Below, in pieces: positions 20,663 through 30,734 of a DNA stretch of 64,000 bases (within the stretch, counting starts at the first letter, position 1; each line of letters opens with the position of its first letter). The notes below the pieces were generated by a model, which searched no databases, was not told the DNA's origin, and saw only the letters and a program-made list of their open reading frames with translations. The DNA comes from Candidatus Acidiferrales bacterium (GTDB lineage Bacteria; Patescibacteriota; Microgenomatia; Levybacterales; UBA12049). The stretch spans positions 14,146 to 78,145 of the forward strand of contig DATLSZ010000020.1 of NCBI GenBank assembly GCA_035533875.1, in the 5' to 3' direction. The position numbers and the translations under genes are program-made.

Positions 20663-21271
20663 TTATTTCAAATCAAGACGTAGCAGCTTTTTCAATTCCT
20701 GTACCGCTTTATACCTATGATGATATTTTTTCACTTCCTTTGGAGTAAGTGTTTCTTCAAAGTAATATTTTTTTAGCTGCGGCAGATAGAAAAAAGAACG
20801 GTACGGATAACCGTGTTCATACATATCGGATGGCTCTTTTGTGATGATACCTTCAATTTCACCGGGGAAACTCATAACGCTGCCGTCAGGGTGGGCAAGT
20901 GATAGTACGACCTTAAAAAAAGCTTGACGATTATCATCAGGAAGCTTCTTTGCGATTCTCCCCATGTGAGCAAAGATATCTTTCTCCGTTGTATCCGGGC
21001 CAAGCCACCGGTGAGATTTGAGTCCTGGAGCACCATCAAGTGCCGTTATTTCCAACCCTCCGTCATCGGCAATCGCGGGCAATCCGCTTTCTTTACTATA
21101 AAACGATGCCTTTATCTGCGAATTTTCTGTATAGTCTTTACCGTTCTCTTCTGGCTCGTCGGTAATGCCGACATCAGATAACGAAACCAGTTGTACCGGC
21201 ACATCAGACAATAACTGTGACAATTCACGAAATTTTCCTTTATTTGTAGTAGCAATTAAAACTTTTTTCAT
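20663..21271 (-). CDS. rdgB: Non-canonical purine NTP pyrophosphatase (RdgB/HAM1 family)
   Basis: 202 aa. N-terminus VLIATTNKGKFRE. Its start overlaps the upstream stop by 4 nt. Confidence 0.8.
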   Translation of the reverse strand: MKKVLIATTNKGKFRELSQLLSDVPVQLVSLSDVGITDEPEENGKDYTENSQIKASFYSKESGLPAIADDGGLEITALDGAPGLKSHRWLGPDTTEKDIFAHMGRIAKKLPDDNRQAFFKVVLSLAHPDGSVMSFPGEIEGIITKEPSDMYEHGYPYRSFFYLPQLKKYYFEETLTPKEVKKYHHRYKAVQELKKLLRLDLK

Positions 21272-22068
21272 GCCCCGTGAATAATATCCTGTAGCTGTTT
21301 ATGCAGCTCAGGCGATGCGGTACAATAGGTAAAATATTCCTGTGTTCTTTTCAACGGGTTAGAATAGTCCAATAATTTACCATAATAATCAGTATACAAC
21401 CCGCCTGCTTCTTCAACAATTATCTGCGGTGCTATATTATCCCAAATTTTACTATTCTTATTGAGTGCGCCTCCATAACCACCCTTTGCAACCATAATGA
21501 TATCAAAAGCGCTATTACTTGAACGAAGATTTCTGATCGCCAGTACGAGATTTCCTACTATCTCAACTTCCTTTTTGGTCCCTATTGGATCTTCATGATG
21601 CCCATCTATGCCATATGCGATCAAAGAATCCCGCAAATTTATTTCCCTTGAAACAGAGATTTTTTTACCGTTGCAAAAGGCACCTTGTCCTTTTTCCGCA
21701 ATCGTTATTTCTTTAAAATAAGGTAGTGCAATCCCACCCGCAATTGGTGTATTTCCATCCAATAAACCTAGCATAATGCCATAGGTCGGGACACCACTTG
21801 CGAAATTACTTGTCCCATCGATTGGATCAACGACCCAAGTAAATTGTGAACCATTATCAATTACCCCCGCTTCCTCATCGATAACATTATATTCAGGATA
21901 GTCTCGTTTTATTTTTTCTACAATGAGTTTGCCAATTGCCAAATCCGCCTCTGTCAGAACTTGATTGGGGTCATGTTCTTTGATAAAACCCGATACGTTA
22001 CCAAACTTCGCATCAGCAATTATTGATGCATCTTCCAGAACAGATTGTATGAAGGACTGATAGTTCAT
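21268..22068 (-). CDS. suhB: Inositol monophosphatase family protein
   Basis: WVVDPIDGTSNF motif. 266 aa. Confidence 0.8.
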   Translation of the reverse strand: MNYQSFIQSVLEDASIIADAKFGNVSGFIKEHDPNQVLTEADLAIGKLIVEKIKRDYPEYNVIDEEAGVIDNGSQFTWVVDPIDGTSNFASGVPTYGIMLGLLDGNTPIAGGIALPYFKEITIAEKGQGAFCNGKKISVSREINLRDSLIAYGIDGHHEDPIGTKKEVEIVGNLVLAIRNLRSSNSAFDIIMVAKGGYGGALNKNSKIWDNIAPQIIVEEAGGLYTDYYGKLLDYSNPLKRTQEYFTYCTASPELHKQLQDIIHGA

Positions 22069-24329
22069 GCAGTTGCTATGCCAAACGACTCGAGTGTGCC
22101 GCCGCAGTATTTCATTATCATATCACAAGATTCCTGCAGAGATTTTTCCACCTGTTCCGGGGTAATATCATAAACGCCGTCGACATTGATATAGAGATTT
22201 TTTGTCGATTCCTTCACTGCTGTTCGCTGCGCGTCGCGGAAATTGAAATCGATATTGAATCCTCCCTTTTGATCAAAATATGCGATCTCAGACTCTTTAT
22301 ATTTCGTTGGTTCCGTATCTCCCAGTAGAAGTATCTCTTCATCATTTTTTGCCAAACGAAGCTCCGTTGGGAACTCAATCGTATCCAAATCAAACGCTCC
22401 GACTGAAACGCGATGCTGCATCACAACAAGATTGTATGCATCAACACAAGTGTTAATTGCATACAAACCCTTATTAAGAGCAACTCTCCTAAGAAGCGCT
22501 TCCGGACTAGGCCTTCGGGAATGCCAGTCAATCCCCATTGCTTTATATAATTTTCTATAATCCAAAACCTCAGGGAATTGTCCCAGTTGTTCGGTAGTCA
22601 GGTCCTTTAATGAATCTAGTAATTGTTGTTTTTCTTTTTCCAATTCAGGATTTGATTTGGTAATCGAAACTCCCTTTATAATAGCTACTCCAATAGAGAT
22701 CGAAGGATATTTTTCTTTCAATTCATTAGACAAAAAGAATATTTCCGGTTTATGAAAAACCTGTACTTTTTGTAATTCCTGATTCCTAATTCCTGGTTTC
22801 TGATTCATTTTTGCAACTTCCTCAAAGCGCTTCTTCACAAACTCCTTATCCAGCGAGAGGATCAACCATGCCGCTTTCGGTCCATGATCTTTACCAATCA
22901 ATGCTTTATAGATAGCGGCAAATGTTTCCTTGCCGTTTAAACCTATTTCTTTCCCCATCTCATAAATGCGTGTTTGGAAAGACTCAGCATCATTTACCGA
23001 ATCCAATTCAGCAGCAATTTTTTGTAAAAGTTCTTTCTGTTTGTCCGTCAAATCACGTGCCTTCTCTGGCAATGTTTCCTGTACCAAAAACTTTTCCGAT
23101 TCCGGAGCATACCGTTCAATCCAAACCCGCGCATATTTCGCCCATTCCGAAAGATCCGCTTTTTCAATTTGCTCCTGCATGTTGGGCATCTGCACCCACT
23201 GCGCAAGAACTGAAAAACGTACAGTTGGCGGTTTCTTTACGTCACCTATTTGAGAGAGCTCATATATCCGTGCCAATTCTTTATCCGATTTTGTGTCATA
23301 TGCAACAGCTGCCTGTTGATATTCATCAAATAACGTAGGAATTGTATTTTTTTCTGCCGGATCAAAATTAATTGCATGATTTAATTTTGTCCGTGCAATT
23401 AAAAATCTAACTAACTGCGGTGGAAGCACTTCAAGTAAATCAACAACAGATGTACCCATTCCTTTGGATGAAGACATCTTCTTCCCACCGACAAGAAAAA
23501 ATTCATGTGCAAAGCCATAGGGAACCGGATAATCCAAAACTTGTTTGCAAACTTTCTCAGCCAAATCATGTGAACCGCCTTTTGTCATATGATCCTTCCC
23601 TGCTCCTTCAACAGTTACACCGATGGCCTGCCATTTGACCGGCCATTCAATTTTCCAGGGTAGTTTGCCATTAATGGTATCTTTTGTCGCAAAGGGTGAT
23701 ATTTTTCCTTTATATCCACACCCTTTTGTCCATTTCACCGCATCAATATGACATTCAAAAGTAACATGTTCACCATCCCAATCAGTAACACGAGTCGTTG
23801 GTATTTTATGACATTGAGGACAGTAAACATTAAATGGATACCAATCATCAGCCATTTTCTTTTTATAAAGCTCTTCATAAAATGTTCTAATAAGTGCTGC
23901 TTTATCCAAACATTTTTTAATTCCTTCATTCATTTTCCCTGAAAAATATAAGTCTGTACCCCAAATAATTTTCGGATGACAGCCGATTGCATTAAAACCT
24001 TTTTCAAATTCCTTTGCATAGAACTGCGCAAATGTTCCATCACCAACGGGCGCGGGGATCATAAATAAAGGATAACCGAGATATTTTTCATAAATAGATT
24101 TATCGAGATAATGAGGCAACTTATCCAACGGATCCTGACTTTCAAAAACATAACTAAATGTCGCATTTTCTCCGGCATCAACAAGAGCTTTATAGACAAG
24201 ATCATGTGTCGTAACCGCACGCAAAGAACCGACATGGATTCTCCCTGAAGGAGTTTTCATATCATCAACCCACGCAAGTGGTAGGTTTTTCTTTTTAATA
24301 TCTTGTGCAATTTTATCAGCCCAAAACAT
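22065..24329 (-). CDS. lysK: Class I lysyl-tRNA synthetase fused to a C-terminal B3/B4 (PheT-type tRNA-binding/editing-like) domain
   Basis: The N-terminal ~520 aa carry TPSGRIHVGSLR and the KMSSSKG (KMSKS) motif in a class I LysRS layout. The extra ~230 aa include RPSPEALLRRVALNKGLYAINTCVDAYNLVVMQHRVSVGAFDLD, which is typical of B3_4 domains. Confidence 0.85.
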   Translation of the reverse strand: MFWADKIAQDIKKKNLPLAWVDDMKTPSGRIHVGSLRAVTTHDLVYKALVDAGENATFSYVFESQDPLDKLPHYLDKSIYEKYLGYPLFMIPAPVGDGTFAQFYAKEFEKGFNAIGCHPKIIWGTDLYFSGKMNEGIKKCLDKAALIRTFYEELYKKKMADDWYPFNVYCPQCHKIPTTRVTDWDGEHVTFECHIDAVKWTKGCGYKGKISPFATKDTINGKLPWKIEWPVKWQAIGVTVEGAGKDHMTKGGSHDLAEKVCKQVLDYPVPYGFAHEFFLVGGKKMSSSKGMGTSVVDLLEVLPPQLVRFLIARTKLNHAINFDPAEKNTIPTLFDEYQQAAVAYDTKSDKELARIYELSQIGDVKKPPTVRFSVLAQWVQMPNMQEQIEKADLSEWAKYARVWIERYAPESEKFLVQETLPEKARDLTDKQKELLQKIAAELDSVNDAESFQTRIYEMGKEIGLNGKETFAAIYKALIGKDHGPKAAWLILSLDKEFVKKRFEEVAKMNQKPGIRNQELQKVQVFHKPEIFFLSNELKEKYPSISIGVAIIKGVSITKSNPELEKEKQQLLDSLKDLTTEQLGQFPEVLDYRKLYKAMGIDWHSRRPSPEALLRRVALNKGLYAINTCVDAYNLVVMQHRVSVGAFDLDTIEFPTELRLAKNDEEILLLGDTEPTKYKESEIAYFDQKGGFNIDFNFRDAQRTAVKESTKNLYINVDGVYDITPEQVEKSLQESCDMIMKYCGGTLESFGIATA

Positions 24330-24344
24330 ACACTCTATTGTAGC

Positions 24345-25268
24345 CTATTTATAGCTTTGAAACAATTGCTGTGAAGTGCTATTTGGCATCAATCCATATT
24401 GCTCCAATACTTCTTTCAGCAACTGTTTATTACTATCACTCATCGGAACCAACGGCAAACGGAATACTTCCTGCATTTTTCCCATCATCGCAAGCGCTGT
24501 TTTGACTGGCTGCGGATTTGTCTCAATGAAATTAATATTCATCAAATCCAGTAGCTGATAATGCATTTTTCTTGCTTTCGCAAAATCTCCACTAAGAGCA
24601 GTTGATACAAATTTTGAAAATTCTTCCGGCACTTCATTGGACACAACAGAAATGATCCCGTCTCCACCGAGTGATAACAATGGAAAAGTCAATGCATCAT
24701 CGCCGCTCAATACAGAAAAATATGACGGTGCGTTTTTGATAATATTCATCATCTGGATAATATCGCCGGATGCTTCTTTTACCCCGATAACCTGCGGCAC
24801 TTTTTTTGCAATTGTCAAAGTCATCTCATCTGTTACATTTAACCCCGTTCTTCCCGGGACATTGTACAGAAGAATTGGCATGTTGACCGCTTCTGCAATC
24901 GCTTTATAATGAGCGATCAAACCATTCAGTGTCGGTTTGTTATAAAAAGGAGTAACATGCAGCAGCACATCTGCTCCGGCTTTTTTTGCAAGGTGAGAAA
25001 ACTCGATAGCTTTTTGTGTATTATTACTGCCTGCTCCGGCAATAACCGGAACTTCTCCTGCGACTTCCTGTGCAACAGTTTTTACGACCAATGCATATTC
25101 ATCATTTGTCATTGTCGCCGCTTCTCCAGTTGATCCACAAGGAACTATACCATTAATCCCATTTTCAATTTGGAACTGAACAAAATTTTTTAAAGCAGAC
25201 ACATCAATATCACCATTTTTTTGAAACGGCGTCACGATAGCTGTTATTGCACCTGTTATTTTTTTCAT
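24345..25268 (-). CDS. dapA: 4-hydroxy-tetrahydrodipicolinate synthase
   Basis: 307 aa. TAIVTPF..., GSTGE and the surrounding DAP gene context. Confidence 0.88.
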   Translation of the reverse strand: MKKITGAITAIVTPFQKNGDIDVSALKNFVQFQIENGINGIVPCGSTGEAATMTNDEYALVVKTVAQEVAGEVPVIAGAGSNNTQKAIEFSHLAKKAGADVLLHVTPFYNKPTLNGLIAHYKAIAEAVNMPILLYNVPGRTGLNVTDEMTLTIAKKVPQVIGVKEASGDIIQMMNIIKNAPSYFSVLSGDDALTFPLLSLGGDGIISVVSNEVPEEFSKFVSTALSGDFAKARKMHYQLLDLMNINFIETNPQPVKTALAMMGKMQEVFRLPLVPMSDSNKQLLKEVLEQYGLMPNSTSQQLFQSYK

Positions 25269-25270
25269 AA

Positions 25271-26005
25271 TTATTTTACCTCCTCAGCAAATAATTCATC
25301 AAATCGGAATAGTCCCTTTTTATTTTTGATAAACTCAGCAGCAAGCAATGCTCCCTCTGCAAAGCCGCGTCTTCCATGCGCCTGATGTGTCAGCGTTATC
25401 TCATCTGCCAAACTGTCAAAGCTTATTGTATGCATTCCGGGATTTCGTCCCGCCCTTACCGACGTAAAATGCAATTCGTCAGATTTAATTTGTCTGTCCA
25501 GTCTGCCAGTTTGCAAACTTTTTTTCCTTGCTATGTTTTTCAAAATAATTTCGGCTAGTTTTTTTGCTGTTCCGCTTGGACTGTCTTTTTTTCCACTATG
25601 GTGAACTTCAAATCCATACGTATCATATTGTTCATATCGTTCAAAAAGTTGACTCGAATATTCAATAATTTTAAAGAATATATTTGCACCAACCGAAAAA
25701 TTTTGTCCGTATATCAGGCCAATTTTATGTTTTCGAACAATTTTTTTCACCTTATCCATTTGATCATACCAACCTGTCGTACCGACAACCATATCGACTC
25801 CCAAACTAGCAACTACTGCAATATTCTCTATAACAATATCGGGAGCTGTGAAATCAATTGCCACATCAGCGCTAAGAATTCCCTCTTTATCTAACATTTT
25901 TTTTCCATCATAGCTTACCGAAACGATTGTATGTTCCGTATTTTCATGGACAAGCTGTTCAATTTCTTGTCCCATATTGCCGTAACCAATAAGTGCAATT
26001 TTCAT
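25271..26005 (-). CDS. dapB: 4-hydroxy-tetrahydrodipicolinate reductase
   Basis: MKIALIGYGNMG Rossmann start, the EVHHSGKKDSPSGTA motif region, and 244 aa. Confidence 0.85.
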   Translation of the reverse strand: MKIALIGYGNMGQEIEQLVHENTEHTIVSVSYDGKKMLDKEGILSADVAIDFTAPDIVIENIAVVASLGVDMVVGTTGWYDQMDKVKKIVRKHKIGLIYGQNFSVGANIFFKIIEYSSQLFERYEQYDTYGFEVHHSGKKDSPSGTAKKLAEIILKNIARKKSLQTGRLDRQIKSDELHFTSVRAGRNPGMHTISFDSLADEITLTHQAHGRRGFAEGALLAAEFIKNKKGLFRFDELFAEEVK

Positions 26006-26009
26006 AATA

Positions 26010-27338
26010 TTAATTAGTAAAAAGTAAACTTTTGTGCAAACATCTTACTGCTTTCCCAACTTGCGAAGACGCAACAACAAGGCTGATATTGATATCCGTT
26101 ACCCCGAATGAAATCATCTTTGGCTCAATCTTATTTAAATCTAAAACGGTAAAAATTTGTTTCATGATTTTTGGTACCCCGACTATCCGTTCACCAATAA
26201 TTGAGACAATGCCGCACGTATCCACATCAGTAACAGTAGCAAACTTTGTTAATTCTTTTAGGGCTTGTGCCAACTTCTCATCATTATCAAGCGTTATGGA
26301 AACACTCACTTCAGAAACACTGACAAGATCAACTGAGATATTATGATGAGCGAATATAGAAAAAACCTTAGATAAGAAACCTCTCTGCAGCAGCATGTCG
26401 GTTGAGTAAATATTGACAAGGGTTATATTATTTTTTGCAGTGATTGCTGCAATACGAGGAGTAATAACCGAAGGAACTTCAATCAAAGTTCCTTTATTAT
26501 TCGGATGCGTTGTATTCAATACTCGTACCGGTATATCTGCTTGCTGGGCAGGACGTATTGTGCGGGGATGAAGCACTTTTGCACCGAAAGTTGCAAGCTC
26601 TGCTGCTTCTCTATATGAAACTTTTTCTATAAGATAAGAATCGTTAATGACACGTGGATCAGTTGTCAAAATTCCGTCTACATCAGTCCAGATTTGCACT
26701 TCTTCAACATTGAGAGAATACCCAATAATTGTTGCGCTATAATCCGATCCTCCTCGGCCGAGTGTCGTAATTTTTTTATCAACCGTTGAGCCGATATACC
26801 CGGTGACAACTGGTACAATACCATTCTGCAATAACGGCAATAAATTTTTTTGAATATTTTTTTTGGTTGGTTTTGGCAAAAATTCTGCTAACCCGAAATT
26901 ATCATTGGTGACAATAAGATCTGTTGCTATTACTTGTTGAGAAGTAATACCAAAAGATGTAAGTGCTTGCGTGATAAGAAATGACGACATCCGTTCGCCA
27001 TATGAAACGATTGCATCGCTTTTTTCTTTTACATTTTGTTTTGTTTGTAATAACTGATTTATTTCACGCAAACACTGATCACTATACATATCAATTTCTT
27101 TCGGATATTCTCCCCCCCAAACATCTTTTGCCAAACGGGAATGTTTCTCTTTGATTTGTTCAAAAACTTGTACTCTATCTCTCTCTTTTAATACCGTCAA
27201 CAACAAATCAGTCATACCGCTCAAAGCGGACACGACAATCACTGGTGTACTTTCTTTTTCGCGTCGAGTTATTTCACCAATTGTTCTGATATTTTTTCCT
27301 GTACTGACGGATGTCCCGCCAAATTTCATAACAACCAT
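26010..27338 (-). CDS. lysC: Aspartate kinase
   Basis: VMKFGGTSV, a central GRGGSDYSA motif, and C-terminal ACT-like repeats. Confidence 0.9.
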   Translation of the reverse strand: MVVMKFGGTSVSTGKNIRTIGEITRREKESTPVIVVSALSGMTDLLLTVLKERDRVQVFEQIKEKHSRLAKDVWGGEYPKEIDMYSDQCLREINQLLQTKQNVKEKSDAIVSYGERMSSFLITQALTSFGITSQQVIATDLIVTNDNFGLAEFLPKPTKKNIQKNLLPLLQNGIVPVVTGYIGSTVDKKITTLGRGGSDYSATIIGYSLNVEEVQIWTDVDGILTTDPRVINDSYLIEKVSYREAAELATFGAKVLHPRTIRPAQQADIPVRVLNTTHPNNKGTLIEVPSVITPRIAAITAKNNITLVNIYSTDMLLQRGFLSKVFSIFAHHNISVDLVSVSEVSVSITLDNDEKLAQALKELTKFATVTDVDTCGIVSIIGERIVGVPKIMKQIFTVLDLNKIEPKMISFGVTDINISLVVASSQVGKAVRCLHKSLLFTN

Positions 27339-27349
27339 AATTCCTCCTT

Positions 27350-28678
27350 TTAAAACATATTCCCTTTGGGTATTATTTGTTTTTTTAAAAACTCTTTCGG
27401 ATGATCAGAGGGTCGAAGTAAAAAATATTTTCCATCATTAACCAATACTTCAGATGCCGTCTGCATACTTAAGAAATATGGCATCGCTTCACTCCAACCG
27501 TATGCGCCTGCGACAAAGATACCCATCAGATCTCCCCTCTGTGTTGATTTGGGTAATAAAACATCTTTACCCAAGATATCTATCGGCGTACACAAAGCAC
27601 CGCCGACAGTCATCTTCACGTCGTGTGCAGCATTTATTTTCGATATGTTATAAACAGGATGCGATCCATTCACAATACTCGGTCGCAAGAAATGATGAAT
27701 ACCTCCGTCAACAAGCACCATTTTTTCTCCATGAGAAACTTTTACATTGTCAACTTGTGAGATATAAATACCACTCTGCGCGACAAAATATCTCCCCGGC
27801 TCGACAGATAATGCAACGTTGTTATTTTTGATAAAGGGAAATTGTGCCAGTATCTCACCAAGATATTTTGCAATCTTATCAAGCTGCAGCGGTTCATCAT
27901 TTTCCGTATATGGGACAGCCAACCCGCCGCCAAAATCTATCGAGCGGATAGGAAAATAAGTATTGAGCTTTTGTGCAACTCGGCAGATATTTTTTATGTT
28001 CTCTAAAAAACCTTTTGTATTCAGCATATTTGCAGAATAGACATGTATTCCAAACAATTCCAGATGCGGAAGTTTCTGAATCTTTGTAATAAACGACCTG
28101 GTAATCTGTTCTTCATCGATTCCAAATTTTGATGCATCCCCTGCCATTACTTGATGCGCTGCATTTTCCACTGACCTGTTAATATTGACCCTGAGAGCAA
28201 CACGCTGTTTCATATTTTTTCTTTTGGCGATAGTATTAATTCTTTGTAATTCGTCTTCACTCTCTGCGTTGATGATATGAACTCCATAATCCAATGCATA
28301 CTCCAATGCTTCATCATTTTTTACCGGACCGGCAAATGAAATTCTTTTTGGATCTGCTCCAATTTTTTTAGCAATAACTAATTCTCCCAACGAAGCAACA
28401 TCCAAATCCGCACCGAGTTTGTATAATCCATCGACTAAAGCAAGTGCCGGATTTGGTTTGATCGCGTAATAAATCGAAATGCCAAGAGGTTTGAAAACTT
28501 GTTGTAAACTTATAAACTGTGCTCTAATTGTCGCTGCATCATAAACATAAAACGGCGGAGGAATATGCGCGGCGATTTTTTCGATTGAAACACCGCTCAT
28601 AGCGAATGTACTTTTTTCACCTTTTTTAATGACAGAAAAACTCGGACTGATCCAGCTTGCGTTATTTTTTAGCGCCAT
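27350..28678 (-). CDS. lysA: Diaminopimelate decarboxylase
   Basis: PFYVYD, YAIKPN (PLP lysine region) and GGGL are motifs of fold-type III decarboxylases. Confidence 0.88.
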   Translation of the reverse strand: MALKNNASWISPSFSVIKKGEKSTFAMSGVSIEKIAAHIPPPFYVYDAATIRAQFISLQQVFKPLGISIYYAIKPNPALALVDGLYKLGADLDVASLGELVIAKKIGADPKRISFAGPVKNDEALEYALDYGVHIINAESEDELQRINTIAKRKNMKQRVALRVNINRSVENAAHQVMAGDASKFGIDEEQITRSFITKIQKLPHLELFGIHVYSANMLNTKGFLENIKNICRVAQKLNTYFPIRSIDFGGGLAVPYTENDEPLQLDKIAKYLGEILAQFPFIKNNNVALSVEPGRYFVAQSGIYISQVDNVKVSHGEKMVLVDGGIHHFLRPSIVNGSHPVYNISKINAAHDVKMTVGGALCTPIDILGKDVLLPKSTQRGDLMGIFVAGAYGWSEAMPYFLSMQTASEVLVNDGKYFLLRPSDHPKEFLKKQIIPKGNMF

Positions 28679-29850
28679 GATGCAAATACTCCTTTCATTC
28701 GTTGTAATCCTTCTCTGATTTCTTCTTCCGATGCAGCATATGATAGACGGATGAAATTTTTTCCAGCTCTGCCAAAAGCGATTCCCGGAATAGTCACAAC
28801 GTTGACTGTTTCAATCAATTTTTTGGCAACAGTCATCCCGTCACCAAAGGCAGACACATCGACAAAATAATAAAATGCGCCGTGTGATACATGAAAATGC
28901 AGTCCGGAAATCTCCTGCAATAGTGAACCCATTAATTTTCTCCGTTTATCAAGGTGTTTATGATACAAGGCAAGTTCCTTGTCACATTCCCGTTTTAATA
29001 CAGGTAGTGCTGCATATTGCGAATCTATTGGCGCGCAGACATACGTTGCCTGCTGAGATTTCAAAGCGTCTGTGATAAAGAAATCAGGCCCGATAATCCA
29101 TCCAATCCGTTTGCCTGCCTGGCTCGCTTGTTTGGACAACCCATTCACCACAATCGTCCGTTCACTGAGTGATGAGATAGAATGATGCGTTGCTCCTTCA
29201 AAAAGACATGTTGCGTAAATTTCATCTGACAGGAAAAAGAGTGATAGATGATCAATTGTTCTTTTTACAATCTTCATCAATGCAGAAAGCGATACTACCT
29301 GTCCAGTTGGATTGGAAGGAGAATTGATCACAATGAGTTTGGTCCGGGCTGTTATTTTACTGAGAAGATCATCAACATCGATATCAAAATCTTCCATTAA
29401 TGCGTATTCTATGACATGCGCGCCCCATTTTTCCGGTAGTGTTTTATACAAGGGATACTGCAAAGCAGGAATGAGTACCTCATCACCTGGATTAAGCATC
29501 GTCTCAAAAGCGATATACAAACCGCCGGTCGAACCGGAAGTAATAATCACATTGTCCCGTGTTGTCTGGATATCAAACTGCTGTGAAAAACGATCGGCTA
29601 TTGCATCTCGAAGTTCCACAAGACCTGCATTTGGCGTATAATTTGTTTTCCCTTCATTGATGGCTTTTTGATTGGCAGCTCTGGCTTTTTTAGGCATTGG
29701 GAATTGTAACTCACCCAAACCCAAACTAACACGTGAGTATTCTCCTGTATGCTGGGTTTCTATAATTGACCGGATCAGAGACAATTCTGTTTGCGCGATA
29801 CGTTTGTTTGGGACATAATAATTTGTCAAATTTATAAGCTGTGTATTCAT
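28669..29850 (-). CDS. Class I/II PLP aminotransferase, probably the acyl-DAP aminotransferase step
   Basis: NYTPNAGL, LSDEIY and GLSKQASQAGKRIGW motifs. It lies between dapD and lysA. The substrate assignment is inferred from context only. Confidence 0.75.
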   Translation of the reverse strand: MNTQLINLTNYYVPNKRIAQTELSLIRSIIETQHTGEYSRVSLGLGELQFPMPKKARAANQKAINEGKTNYTPNAGLVELRDAIADRFSQQFDIQTTRDNVIITSGSTGGLYIAFETMLNPGDEVLIPALQYPLYKTLPEKWGAHVIEYALMEDFDIDVDDLLSKITARTKLIVINSPSNPTGQVVSLSALMKIVKRTIDHLSLFFLSDEIYATCLFEGATHHSISSLSERTIVVNGLSKQASQAGKRIGWIIGPDFFITDALKSQQATYVCAPIDSQYAALPVLKRECDKELALYHKHLDKRRKLMGSLLQEISGLHFHVSHGAFYYFVDVSAFGDGMTVAKKLIETVNVVTIPGIAFGRAGKNFIRLSYAASEEEIREGLQRMKGVFASWR

Positions 29851-30734
29851 CGTAATGCCTCCTCAAGAAGTGTTTTGAGATCAGTTCTTTTATCACGATA
29901 TTTAATGATAACCGGAACTTGTATCTGAATCCATTGTTCTAGTGCAAATTTATTATCATCTTTTGGACGTGTTCCGTTCACTACAATAGCTCCTTCCGGT
30001 ATTTCAAGTGGAGTAGCATCAGTCGCTTTATAGACTTTCTGTTTTATCAGATCATACACCGGCGTTGCCGATGTGATATTGACACCGGGGACAAGCAAAA
30101 CCCGTTTGCGAAGGATAACCCCTTCTGCGATGGAAGAATTAATACCCATGAGAACATCATCTTCAACAATACACGGACTCGCATTGACCGGCTCAAGGAC
30201 GCCGCCGATTTGCGCGCCGGCTGAGATATGACACCTATTACCAACCTGTGCACAGCTCCCAACTAATGAATGCGAGTCAAGCATTGTTCCTTCTCCGACA
30301 TATGCGCCGGTATTGATATATGCAGGAGGCATCATGATGACTCCTTTTCCGATAAAAGACCCATCCCTGATACTTGATCCACCAGGGACTATCCGAATAT
30401 TTTCAATTGTAAAATCAGTTGACCGTAATGGAAAAGTATCTTTATCGGCAAACTGAAGTGTCTCGGTTTTACCGGACATTCCGGTAATGACACCAAACCG
30501 CATACAGACCAAAATCCCTTCTTTCACCCAGGTATTCGTTATCCAAACACCCTTTGTATCTTTTTCGGCAGAGCGGATCGCACCGCTATTCAATGCGGAA
30601 ATAAACTGTTGTATGATGTCTCTTGCATTCACTGTTTTCCGTAATTTCGTAACGGATGAAATTTGGGCAAGCGTTATGATTTCTTTTTGTAATTGATTTT
30701 TAGACAAACTTTTTTTCATATTTATTGCTGGCAC
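29847..30734 (-). CDS. dapD: Tetrahydrodipicolinate N-acyl(succinyl)transferase
   Basis: Left-handed beta-helix hexapeptide region ...GAQIGGVLEPVNASPCIVEDDVLMGINSSIAEGV..., within the DAP gene context. Confidence 0.8.
   Translation of the reverse strand: MPAINMKKSLSKNQLQKEIITLAQISSVTKLRKTVNARDIIQQFISALNSGAIRSAEKDTKGVWITNTWVKEGILVCMRFGVITGMSGKTETLQFADKDTFPLRSTDFTIENIRIVPGGSSIRDGSFIGKGVIMMPPAYINTGAYVGEGTMLDSHSLVGSCAQVGNRCHISAGAQIGGVLEPVNASPCIVEDDVLMGINSSIAEGVILRKRVLLVPGVNITSATPVYDLIKQKVYKATDATPLEIPEGAIVVNGTRPKDDNKFALEQWIQIQVPVIIKYRDKRTDLKTLLEEALR

Follow-up and report, generated by a model that had tools for sequence, protein, structure and literature searches.

The fusion gene and its neighborhood

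We examined a window of 64,000 nucleotides (nt) (contig DATLSZ010000020.1, positions 14,146–78,145, assembly GCA_035533875.1) from a genome recorded as Candidatus Acidiferrales bacterium and placed by GTDB in the order Levybacterales of the Patescibacteriota. At positions 22065–24329 on the minus strand, this window carries a single open reading frame (ORF) of 754 amino acids plus a stop codon, which begins at an ATG and is not interrupted by any stop; its coordinates were checked. The gene encodes a class I lysyl-tRNA synthetase (LysRS-I) continued at its C-terminus by a B3/4 module that resembles CtdA, a canavanyl-tRNAArg deacylase. The catalytic (Rossmann) domain spans residues 2–361 (23247–24326; Pfam PF01921 tRNA-synt_1f, E = 3.3e-86) and contains the HIGH-type motif HVGS (residues 32–35; 24225–24236), the KMSKS-type motif KMSSS (residues 284–288; 23466–23480), both with verified coordinates, and the zinc-knuckle motif CPQC, read from the ORF at residues 170–173. 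It is followed by the helical anticodon-binding domain of LysRS-I (residues 362–505; 22815–23246), which was helical and confident in the AlphaFold2 model and within which Pfam Anticodon_2, the LysRS/GluRS-type anticodon-binding domain, was matched at residues 422–504. A linker of 21 residues (AKMNQKPGIRNQELQKVQVFH; residues 506–526; 22752–22814), unconserved and predicted to be disordered, then leads to the 228-residue module (residues 527–754; 22068–22751), which was delimited from Pfam, AlphaFold2, Foldseek, and conservation and includes a Pfam B3_4 core at residues 591–743 (22101–22559; PF03483, E = 1.1e-22). All of these features lie on the minus strand.

The synthetase part (residues 1–503) scored 340.4 bits against the NCBIfam equivalog TIGR00467 (lysS_arch), for which the cut-off is 147.55, and this score, the HIGH- and KMSKS-type motifs, and the zinc-knuckle cysteine motif identify it as a class I LysRS. 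Residues K284, M285, S286, S288, C170, and C173 were invariant among 68 fusions. The B3_4 match reached 80.9 bits against the curated gathering cut-off of 29.3 and covered positions 2–174 of the 174 in the profile. The best explanation of the sequence is that the product would be a working class I lysyl-tRNA synthetase with a C-terminally tethered B3/4 module. An earlier sequence-only reading had described a complete LysRS-I core followed by about 230 extra residues matching the B3_4 family. The motifs that it quoted are all present, including the stretch RPSPEALLRR...VDAYN...VGAFDLD, which corresponds to residues 606–649. The core and the domain call hold; the extension is closer to 250 residues, composed of the 21-residue linker and the 228-residue module, and homology extends past the B3_4 core to the entire module, which corresponds to a stand-alone CtdA-like protein in full. 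That reading had also named a missing B3_4 match and a misassembled fusion as findings that would speak against it; neither was observed, since the match is highly significant and the protein recurs in at least four independent assemblies.

In terms of reproducibility, the identical 754-amino-acid protein was encoded on nine contigs, and the four compared here (Logan SRR8554485, ENA ERZ27256799, ENA ERZ27256801, and JGI 3300031671) are separate assemblies with the same neighboring genes. Each of the 120 best database homologues (57–74% identity) was full-length and contained both domains; nearly all were approximately 745–785 amino acids long, a few had a longer tail, and many were encoded on long contigs. 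Their public annotation is simply "lysine--tRNA ligase". The survey of phyletic distribution proposed in the sequence-only reading was made on the GTDB species representatives, at least 551 of which encode a relative of the module. In the best 80 of these loci, from which all of the locus counts given below were taken, the module was in frame with a LysRS in every case, 74 of class I and six of class II. Named records with the fusion span the Levy-, Davies-, Gottesman-, Roizman-, and Woesebacteria, all Microgenomates within the candidate phyla radiation (CPR). Many records of metagenome-assembled genomes with Microgenomates-type fusions are labeled as "uncultured Gammaproteobacteria", Methylomirabilota, Xanthomonadales, Limnocylindrales, Eisenbacteria, or Sulfotelmatobacter (L008, L013, L019–L021, and others among the loci; P0110, P0120, P0122, P0202, and P0223 among the proteins). 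These labels are probably placeholder names or the result of mis-binned contigs, and they should be read with caution.

The fusion gene lies downstream of a near-complete string of co-directional lysine-biosynthesis genes (24345–30734, minus strand), assigned from the ORFs and from Pfam labels in the loci L001–L004. These are dapA (24345–25268), dapB (25271–26005), lysC (26010–27338), lysA (27350–28678), an aminotransferase gene (28669–29850), and a dapD-like gene (29847–30734). Such a string is notable in a CPR-type genome. It is seldom found beside the fusion elsewhere: DapA was encoded next to it in one of the 80 GTDB loci, DapB in none, and LysC in three. We therefore dropped the neighborhood as a clue to a substrate such as diaminopimelate. 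On the other side, the stop codon of the fusion shares four nucleotides (ATGA) with the start codon of an inositol-monophosphatase-like gene (21268–22068, minus strand), which is followed by a co-directional gene for a Ham1/RdgB-like protein of the nucleoside triphosphate pyrophosphatase type (20663–21271, minus strand). The Ham1-like gene was the most conserved neighbor of the fusion (47 of 80 GTDB loci), with no evident functional link. No lysine riboswitch, T-box, or tRNALys was found near the gene, the only Rfam match being to a tRNA, which is a tRNA-Pro according to ARAGORN, and no second LysRS or second B3/4 domain was found within the window.

Fold, conservation, and pocket of the appended module

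When the tail alone was compared with the sequences in the PDB, the best matches were to CtdA (9mkl and 9f7e, E ~4e-4), ahead of the PheRS (phenylalanyl-tRNA synthetase) beta subunits, and the whole window protein scored only 26 bits against TIGR00472 (pheT), which has a cut-off of 402. The structure prediction and fold comparison suggested in the sequence-only reading gave the same ranking. The AlphaFold2 model of residues 527–754 had a predicted local distance difference test (pLDDT) score of 96.2 and a predicted template modeling (pTM) score of 0.91, and its best Foldseek matches were again CtdA 9mkl and 9f7e, with alignment over the full length (TM 0.82/0.82, E ~1e-16, approximately 235 columns), as against a TMq of ~0.6 for PheRS beta. 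The helical insert specific to CtdA was present in the model as helices at module positions 35–91. Thus, by both sequence and fold, the module is closer to CtdA than to the domain of PheRS beta that performs editing. In the model of the full-length protein, two confident units were separated by a disordered segment (residues 510–520, pLDDT <50), with an overall pTM of 0.65; as modeled, the relative orientation of the synthetase and the module is not fixed.

The four parts of the protein differed markedly in conservation. Averaged over 125 full-length fusions, identity to the window protein was 59.1% in the catalytic domain, 60.1% in the anticodon-binding domain, 10.3% in the linker, and 68.5% in the module. 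The higher mean identity of the module than of either synthetase domain points to stronger constraint on the module than on the synthetase core, even though the module is attached by a free tether. From its sequence, the module resembles a cis-linked copy of an autonomous protein of the trans-editing type, tethered by a disordered and unconserved linker.

The aminoacyl pocket of CtdA consists of N105, G116, E118, C166, Q173, and I189, of which N105 is essential and C166 tunes specificity; N105, G116, and Q173 correspond to N254, H265, and G318 of Escherichia coli PheT, and the asparagine is said to place the hydrolytic water (PMC12449066). We mapped these positions with two concordant alignments (phmmer and MAFFT) at 16–18% identity, together with the global fold match, and obtained N633, G644, F646, N692, D699, and N715 in the window protein. 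Asn633 (22431–22433), the equivalent of CtdA N105, was invariant in 25 of 25 class I-fused and 12 of 12 class II-fused modules. In the segment Gly644-Ala645-Phe646 (22392–22400), the glycine aligned with CtdA G116 and the phenylalanine with CtdA E118 (PheT F267), and both were present in 25 of 25 class I fusions. Asn692 (22254–22256) takes the place of the specificity residue C166 and was asparagine in 22 of 25 class I fusions; Asp699 (22233–22235), at the position of Q173, was aspartate in 24 of 25 class I and 11 of 12 class II fusions; and Asn715 (22185–22187), at the position of I189, was asparagine in 24 of 25 class I fusions. These codons are all on the minus strand. CtdA and the modules fused to arginyl-tRNA synthetase (ArgRS), described below, have glutamate at the position of F646 and glutamine or glutamate at that of Asp699. 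At the position of Asn692, CtdA and four of the five ArgRS-fused modules have cysteine, and valine or isoleucine occurs at the position of Asn715 in CtdA-like and ArgRS-fused modules.

Of the six CtdA pocket residues, only N105 and G116 are therefore retained, and the other four are replaced by residues that are fixed in the module clade. With pairwise alignment, the signature N-G-F-N-D-N was found in 133 of 146 class I fusions, 52 of 53 close short proteins, and 6 of 12 class II fusions. A second pocket type, N-(A/G)-(Y/F)-(C/T)-D-x, occurred on both LysRS classes, and an aromatic residue at the E118 position and an aspartate at the Q173 position were common to most C-terminal LysRS modules. 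The retention of the hydrolytic asparagine and the small glycine, with another conserved set of residues at the specificity positions, would fit an active deacylase that acts on something other than canavanine. Canavanine is not expected as the substrate because four of the six pocket positions differ from those of CtdA and because the partner is LysRS, not ArgRS. Asp699 is a likely candidate for the partner of a cationic side-chain end.

The module thus shares with CtdA (PMC10018355, PMC12449066) the full-length fold of approximately 228 amino acids with its helical insert, the essential asparagine, the pocket glycine, the segment N-x-R-x-x-x-R-T, and the existence of stand-alone copies. It differs in overall sequence, in the four pocket positions, and in its covalent attachment in the window and in all 80 GTDB loci, whereas CtdA is free-standing. 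The B3/B4 domain of PheRS beta, which hydrolyzes Tyr- and m-Tyr-tRNAPhe, is likewise assigned to PF03483 and is an editing-type domain located in cis in a synthetase. The equivalents of PheT N254 and F267 are retained in the module (HAFD in PheT, GAFD in the module), H265 is replaced by glycine, asparagine stands at the A312 position, and Tyr623 at that of R244; the reference fragment included neither G318 nor E334, and the G318 position was assigned to Asp699 by way of CtdA Q173. Unlike the module, which sits on a disordered linker of LysRS-I, the PheRS domain is embedded in the multidomain PheT (B1–B8), and it has other inserts and another topology (PMC12449066).

Modules on other synthetases and as separate genes

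An exhaustive search across 1.84 billion representative sequences returned 2,066 relatives, and 31 of the best 150 were longer than 650 amino acids. Twenty of these 31 were scanned with Pfam and all 20 were synthetase fusions, with the partner confirmed by NCBIfam equivalog cut-offs for the subset tested. The partners among these 20 were class I and class II LysRS, with the module at either terminus, ArgRS with an N-terminal module, and tyrosyl-tRNA synthetase (TyrRS).

Homologues of the module with 60–77% identity were located C-terminal to class II LysRS, and the full-length class II fusions scored above the lysS_bact equivalog cut-off. In the GTDB set, the class II-fused modules were 65–74% identical to class I-fused modules, and for four of the six the nearest relative was class I-fused. 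In a neighbor-joining tree of the modules, the two LysRS classes were interleaved in one clade; this tree was built on Kimura distances with no bootstrap, and its topology is only indicative. The two LysRS classes are unrelated in fold, and what these partners share is therefore the amino acid and the tRNA. Such Rosetta-stone evidence suggests that the module is tied to lysine or tRNALys rather than to one protein scaffold.

The five ArgRS fusions (P0281, P0282, P0298, P0338, and P0350) were 868–1124 amino acids long and had an N-terminal CtdA-like module, present in two copies in P0350. P0282, the one tested with NCBIfam, scored above the argS equivalog cut-off. In four of the five, the module had the canavanine-type pocket of CtdA, N-G-E-C-E-V, which suggests that these proteins may be cis-editing ArgRSs. 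The two TyrRS fusions (P0322 and P0312) scored above the tyrS equivalog cut-off and had an N-terminal B3/4 module with a third pocket type, N-G-H-T-Q-P. In P0312, a YbaK-type tRNA_edit domain precedes the module, so that two editing-type domains occur together on a synthetase considered not to edit. The pocket type thus appears to follow the amino acid of the partner, with exceptions. N-terminal B3/4 modules were also observed on class I (P0324) and class II (P0263 and P0287) LysRSs, and their pockets were CtdA-like, N-G-(D/E)-C-E-(V/Y).

The module was also found apart from a synthetase. At locus L006 (3647–5699), a complete class II lysS gene overlaps a module gene by 14 nt. The class I lysK gene at L088 (2355–4678) is read in another frame than the module, and the switch of frame falls within the unconserved linker. 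For both loci, either a genuine split of the gene or an indel error could account for the arrangement. Loci L007 and L089 carry dispersed stand-alone copies of the module. In another relative (L005, 3348–5534), a class II LysRS::B3/4 fusion has a continuous frame apart from a single in-frame TGA at the conserved motif 3 glycine (EAIEH-stop-FPPTCG, compared with EAIEHGFPPTCG in a relative). This codon may reflect an error in sequencing, a pseudogene, or recoding at this site; further genes of the contig appear standard.

A search started from a divergent class I fusion (P0346) revealed a second clade of LysRS-I::B3/4 fusions of approximately 762–768 amino acids (P0346 and P0368–P0382), with the pocket N-A-Y-C-D-I. 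Some of its members carry the names Anaerolineales or Anaerolineae, and a 3.7-Mb contig encodes one of the fusions, indicating that the fusion is not confined to the CPR. The nearest unfused LysRS-I sequences, from Desulfonema, Nitrospirota, and others, were 43–47% identical to those of this clade. These relationships suggest an independent fusion, or a transfer outside the CPR. Furthermore, other class I LysRSs of 777–798 amino acids carry a C-terminal AlaX-M-type domain (P0391, P0393, P0395, P0396, P0408, and P0417, the last named Candidatus Aminicenantes). In the one checked, P0395, the C-terminal 250 residues matched solved AlaX structures at E = 3e-29, and the HxxxH and CGGTH motifs were intact. 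The presence of two unrelated folds of aminoacyl-tRNA deacylases at the same position of LysRS-I strengthens the view that the appended domains serve editing.

Proposed function and alternative explanations

To our knowledge, no synthetase other than LysRS occurs in both structural classes, and a post-transfer editing domain is not known for either; the proofreading described for LysRS is pre-transfer editing in the active site, for class II only. According to a 2020 review (PMC7373986), class II LysRS is limited to this route, in which homocysteine, homoserine, and ornithine are removed by cyclization, and tRNALys misacylated by LysRS is proofread after transfer in trans by ProXp-ST1 and -ST2. 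The class II mechanism resembles the proposed role of the module in guarding lysine decoding against non-protein near-cognates; unlike the module, it operates at the synthetic site, before transfer and with no extra domain. ProXp-ST1 and -ST2 are free-standing, and the folds of ProXp-ST (YbaK/INS-like) and AlaX are unrelated to B3/4. No published description of a LysRS with a B3/4 or other post-transfer editing domain was found in a search that left most subscription journals outside its reach. The CtdA papers do not mention fusions; the 2023 paper stated that no ArgRS editing domain was known, and the 2025 phylogenetic survey covered sequences of 180–260 residues from reference proteomes only, which excludes such fusions by design. 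A tRNA-deacylase paper (Nat Chem 2026) concerns AlaX only, a paper on synthetase architecture in Leishmania contains no LysRS with an editing domain of this type, and the 2024 domain table of AARS Online lists editing superfamilies for the Ile/Leu/Val and Ala/Thr synthetases alone and none for LysRS. The fusion sequences are public and the domain pair is visible in precomputed Pfam annotations, so that what is new is the recognition and interpretation and not the data; cis-editing domains and B3/4 deacylases are each already known kinds.

We propose, with a probability of roughly 0.6, that the module is a tethered CtdA-type deacylase for the post-transfer editing of mischarged tRNALys. The synthetase core would charge tRNALys, and the tethered module would capture the aminoacylated 3′ end, either as the tRNA leaves the synthetase or when it rebinds at the high local concentration. 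The aminoacyl moiety would enter the pocket at the B3/B4 interface, where the ester bond would be cleaved if the amino acid were a lysine look-alike and not lysine itself. The reaction would follow the chemistry known for CtdA and for the editing site of PheRS, relying on the invariant Asn633, with specificity provided by F646, N692, D699, and N715 in place of the four CtdA residues, and Asp699 pairing with the terminal cationic group of the substrate. Our leading guess for the substrate would be a basic near-cognate or antimetabolite of lysine, such as ornithine, thialysine, oxalysine-type analogues, or arginine-like residues. We favor a tethered trans-editing factor, acting through local concentration, over a rigid CCA-swing geometry because the linker is unconserved and disordered and because the module is a separate gene in some relatives and occurs at either terminus and on either LysRS class. 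The appended editing or tRNA-binding function suggested in the sequence-only reading is thus favored by the comparative evidence, especially the occurrence of the same module on class II LysRS and of the AlaX fold on other class I LysRSs.

Several points weigh against this proposal. Hydrolytic activity, action on tRNALys, and the class of substrate are inferred from what was observed, namely the reproducible architecture, the fold and its conservation, the make-up of the pocket, and the distribution among relatives. The conserved asparagine is not proof of catalysis, because the PheRS N254A variant is still largely active (PMC12449066). Alignments of low identity underlie the pocket mapping, although the two agree. 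In LysRS-I, the C-terminus is located where the anticodon is bound, distant from the acceptor end of the tRNA, and the model shows no fixed interdomain arrangement (pTM 0.65, disordered linker); a CCA-swing geometry for cis editing is therefore not evident, and the proposal rests on tethering. The lysine-biosynthesis operon, not being conserved, offers no clue to the substrate. Finally, CtdA-type pockets occurred on the N-terminal LysRS fusions and on one C-terminal class II fusion (P0321), so that a LysRS partner does not strictly imply a Lys-type pocket.

The alternative that survives best, although unlikely, is that the module is a non-catalytic tRNA-binding domain, its hydrolytic activity lost or never used, through which LysRS would bind tRNALys more tightly or keep hold of its acceptor end. 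Such appended domains are common on synthetases, a class II fusion (P0247) also carries a tRNA_bind domain, and the arginine-rich conserved motifs (LLRR at residues 612–615, and R698) and a flexible tether with no fixed geometry would suit nucleic acid binding. However, the pocket residues N633, G644, F646, D699, and N715, which have no need to contact the tRNA, are invariant or nearly so, and the pocket type tracks the amino acid of the partner, being CtdA-type on ArgRS and of other types on TyrRS and LysRS, which would be unexpected for a generic binder. Moreover, the unrelated domain found at the same position of LysRS-I is of the AlaX type with intact catalytic motifs, and the closest characterized relatives of the module are active deacylases.

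Somewhat less probable still is an active deacylase directed at another target, such as another mischarged tRNA or D-aminoacyl-tRNAs, with the fusion ensuring only co-expression. CtdA is free-standing and has tRNAArg as its target (PMC10018355), and the dispersed stand-alone copies of the Lys-type module and the CtdA-type pockets of some LysRS-fused modules would agree with a role of this kind. On the other hand, the repeated, independent association with LysRS, in both classes, at either terminus, and as adjacent genes, is difficult to explain without a link to lysine or tRNALys, and CtdA-type pockets accompany ArgRS, the partner expected from the substrate of CtdA. We consider it quite improbable that the module has a non-proofreading role on cognate Lys-tRNALys or free lysine, as a regulatory hydrolase, sensor, or carrier. 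Fusions of LysRS to domains that consume Lys-tRNA are known, such as LysX (LysRS-II-MprF, NCBIfam NF002821), and the gene lies in a lysine-biosynthesis cluster in this window, but that context is not conserved, no riboswitch or T-box connects the locus with the sensing of lysine, the only known roles of the B3/4 fold are those of a deacylase or a tRNA-end binder, and a futile cycle would result if the enzyme hydrolyzed its own product. The possibility that two separate genes were merged by an error of assembly or gene calling, which the relatives called as two genes or interrupted by a TGA might bring to mind, is ruled out for practical purposes by the unbroken frame in the window, the independent assemblies with the identical protein, the 120 fused homologues, and the in-frame fusions across the GTDB species genomes.

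Beyond the single gene, the evidence is about evenly balanced on whether the module founds a branch of CtdA-like deacylases dedicated to tRNALys, within a wider pattern in which CtdA-like modules have been recruited in cis by LysRS-I, LysRS-II, ArgRS, and TyrRS, all regarded so far as lacking editing domains, with each pocket tuned to the amino acid of the partner. If the module is an active deacylase, lysine would join the amino acids that are proofread after transfer, and lysine decoding would gain a step that textbooks omit. The use of the same module on two unrelated LysRS scaffolds, and of AlaX on others, would locate the selective pressure with the amino acid and the tRNA rather than with the enzyme. 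The CtdA family, known for a single substrate (canavanine), would come to include a set of editors specific to their partners, and the distinct conserved pocket would provide a handle for finding the lysine look-alike that these bacteria face. The pattern would also point to natural antimetabolites of lysine, arginine, and tyrosine that mostly uncultured bacteria must exclude, and the modules might be of use as fidelity tools, or stand in the way, when genetic codes are engineered to incorporate lysine analogues.

Some of the fusions have a third part beyond the module. DUF2000 was found in P0239 and P0092, and an HD domain in P0237, where the match was weak, and in P0247. Further fusions with a third part were P0174, P0202, and P0204 among the proteins, and L030, L033, and L038 among the loci. 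On class I fusions of 959–986 amino acids, the third part was a tail of approximately 200 amino acids with no Pfam match.

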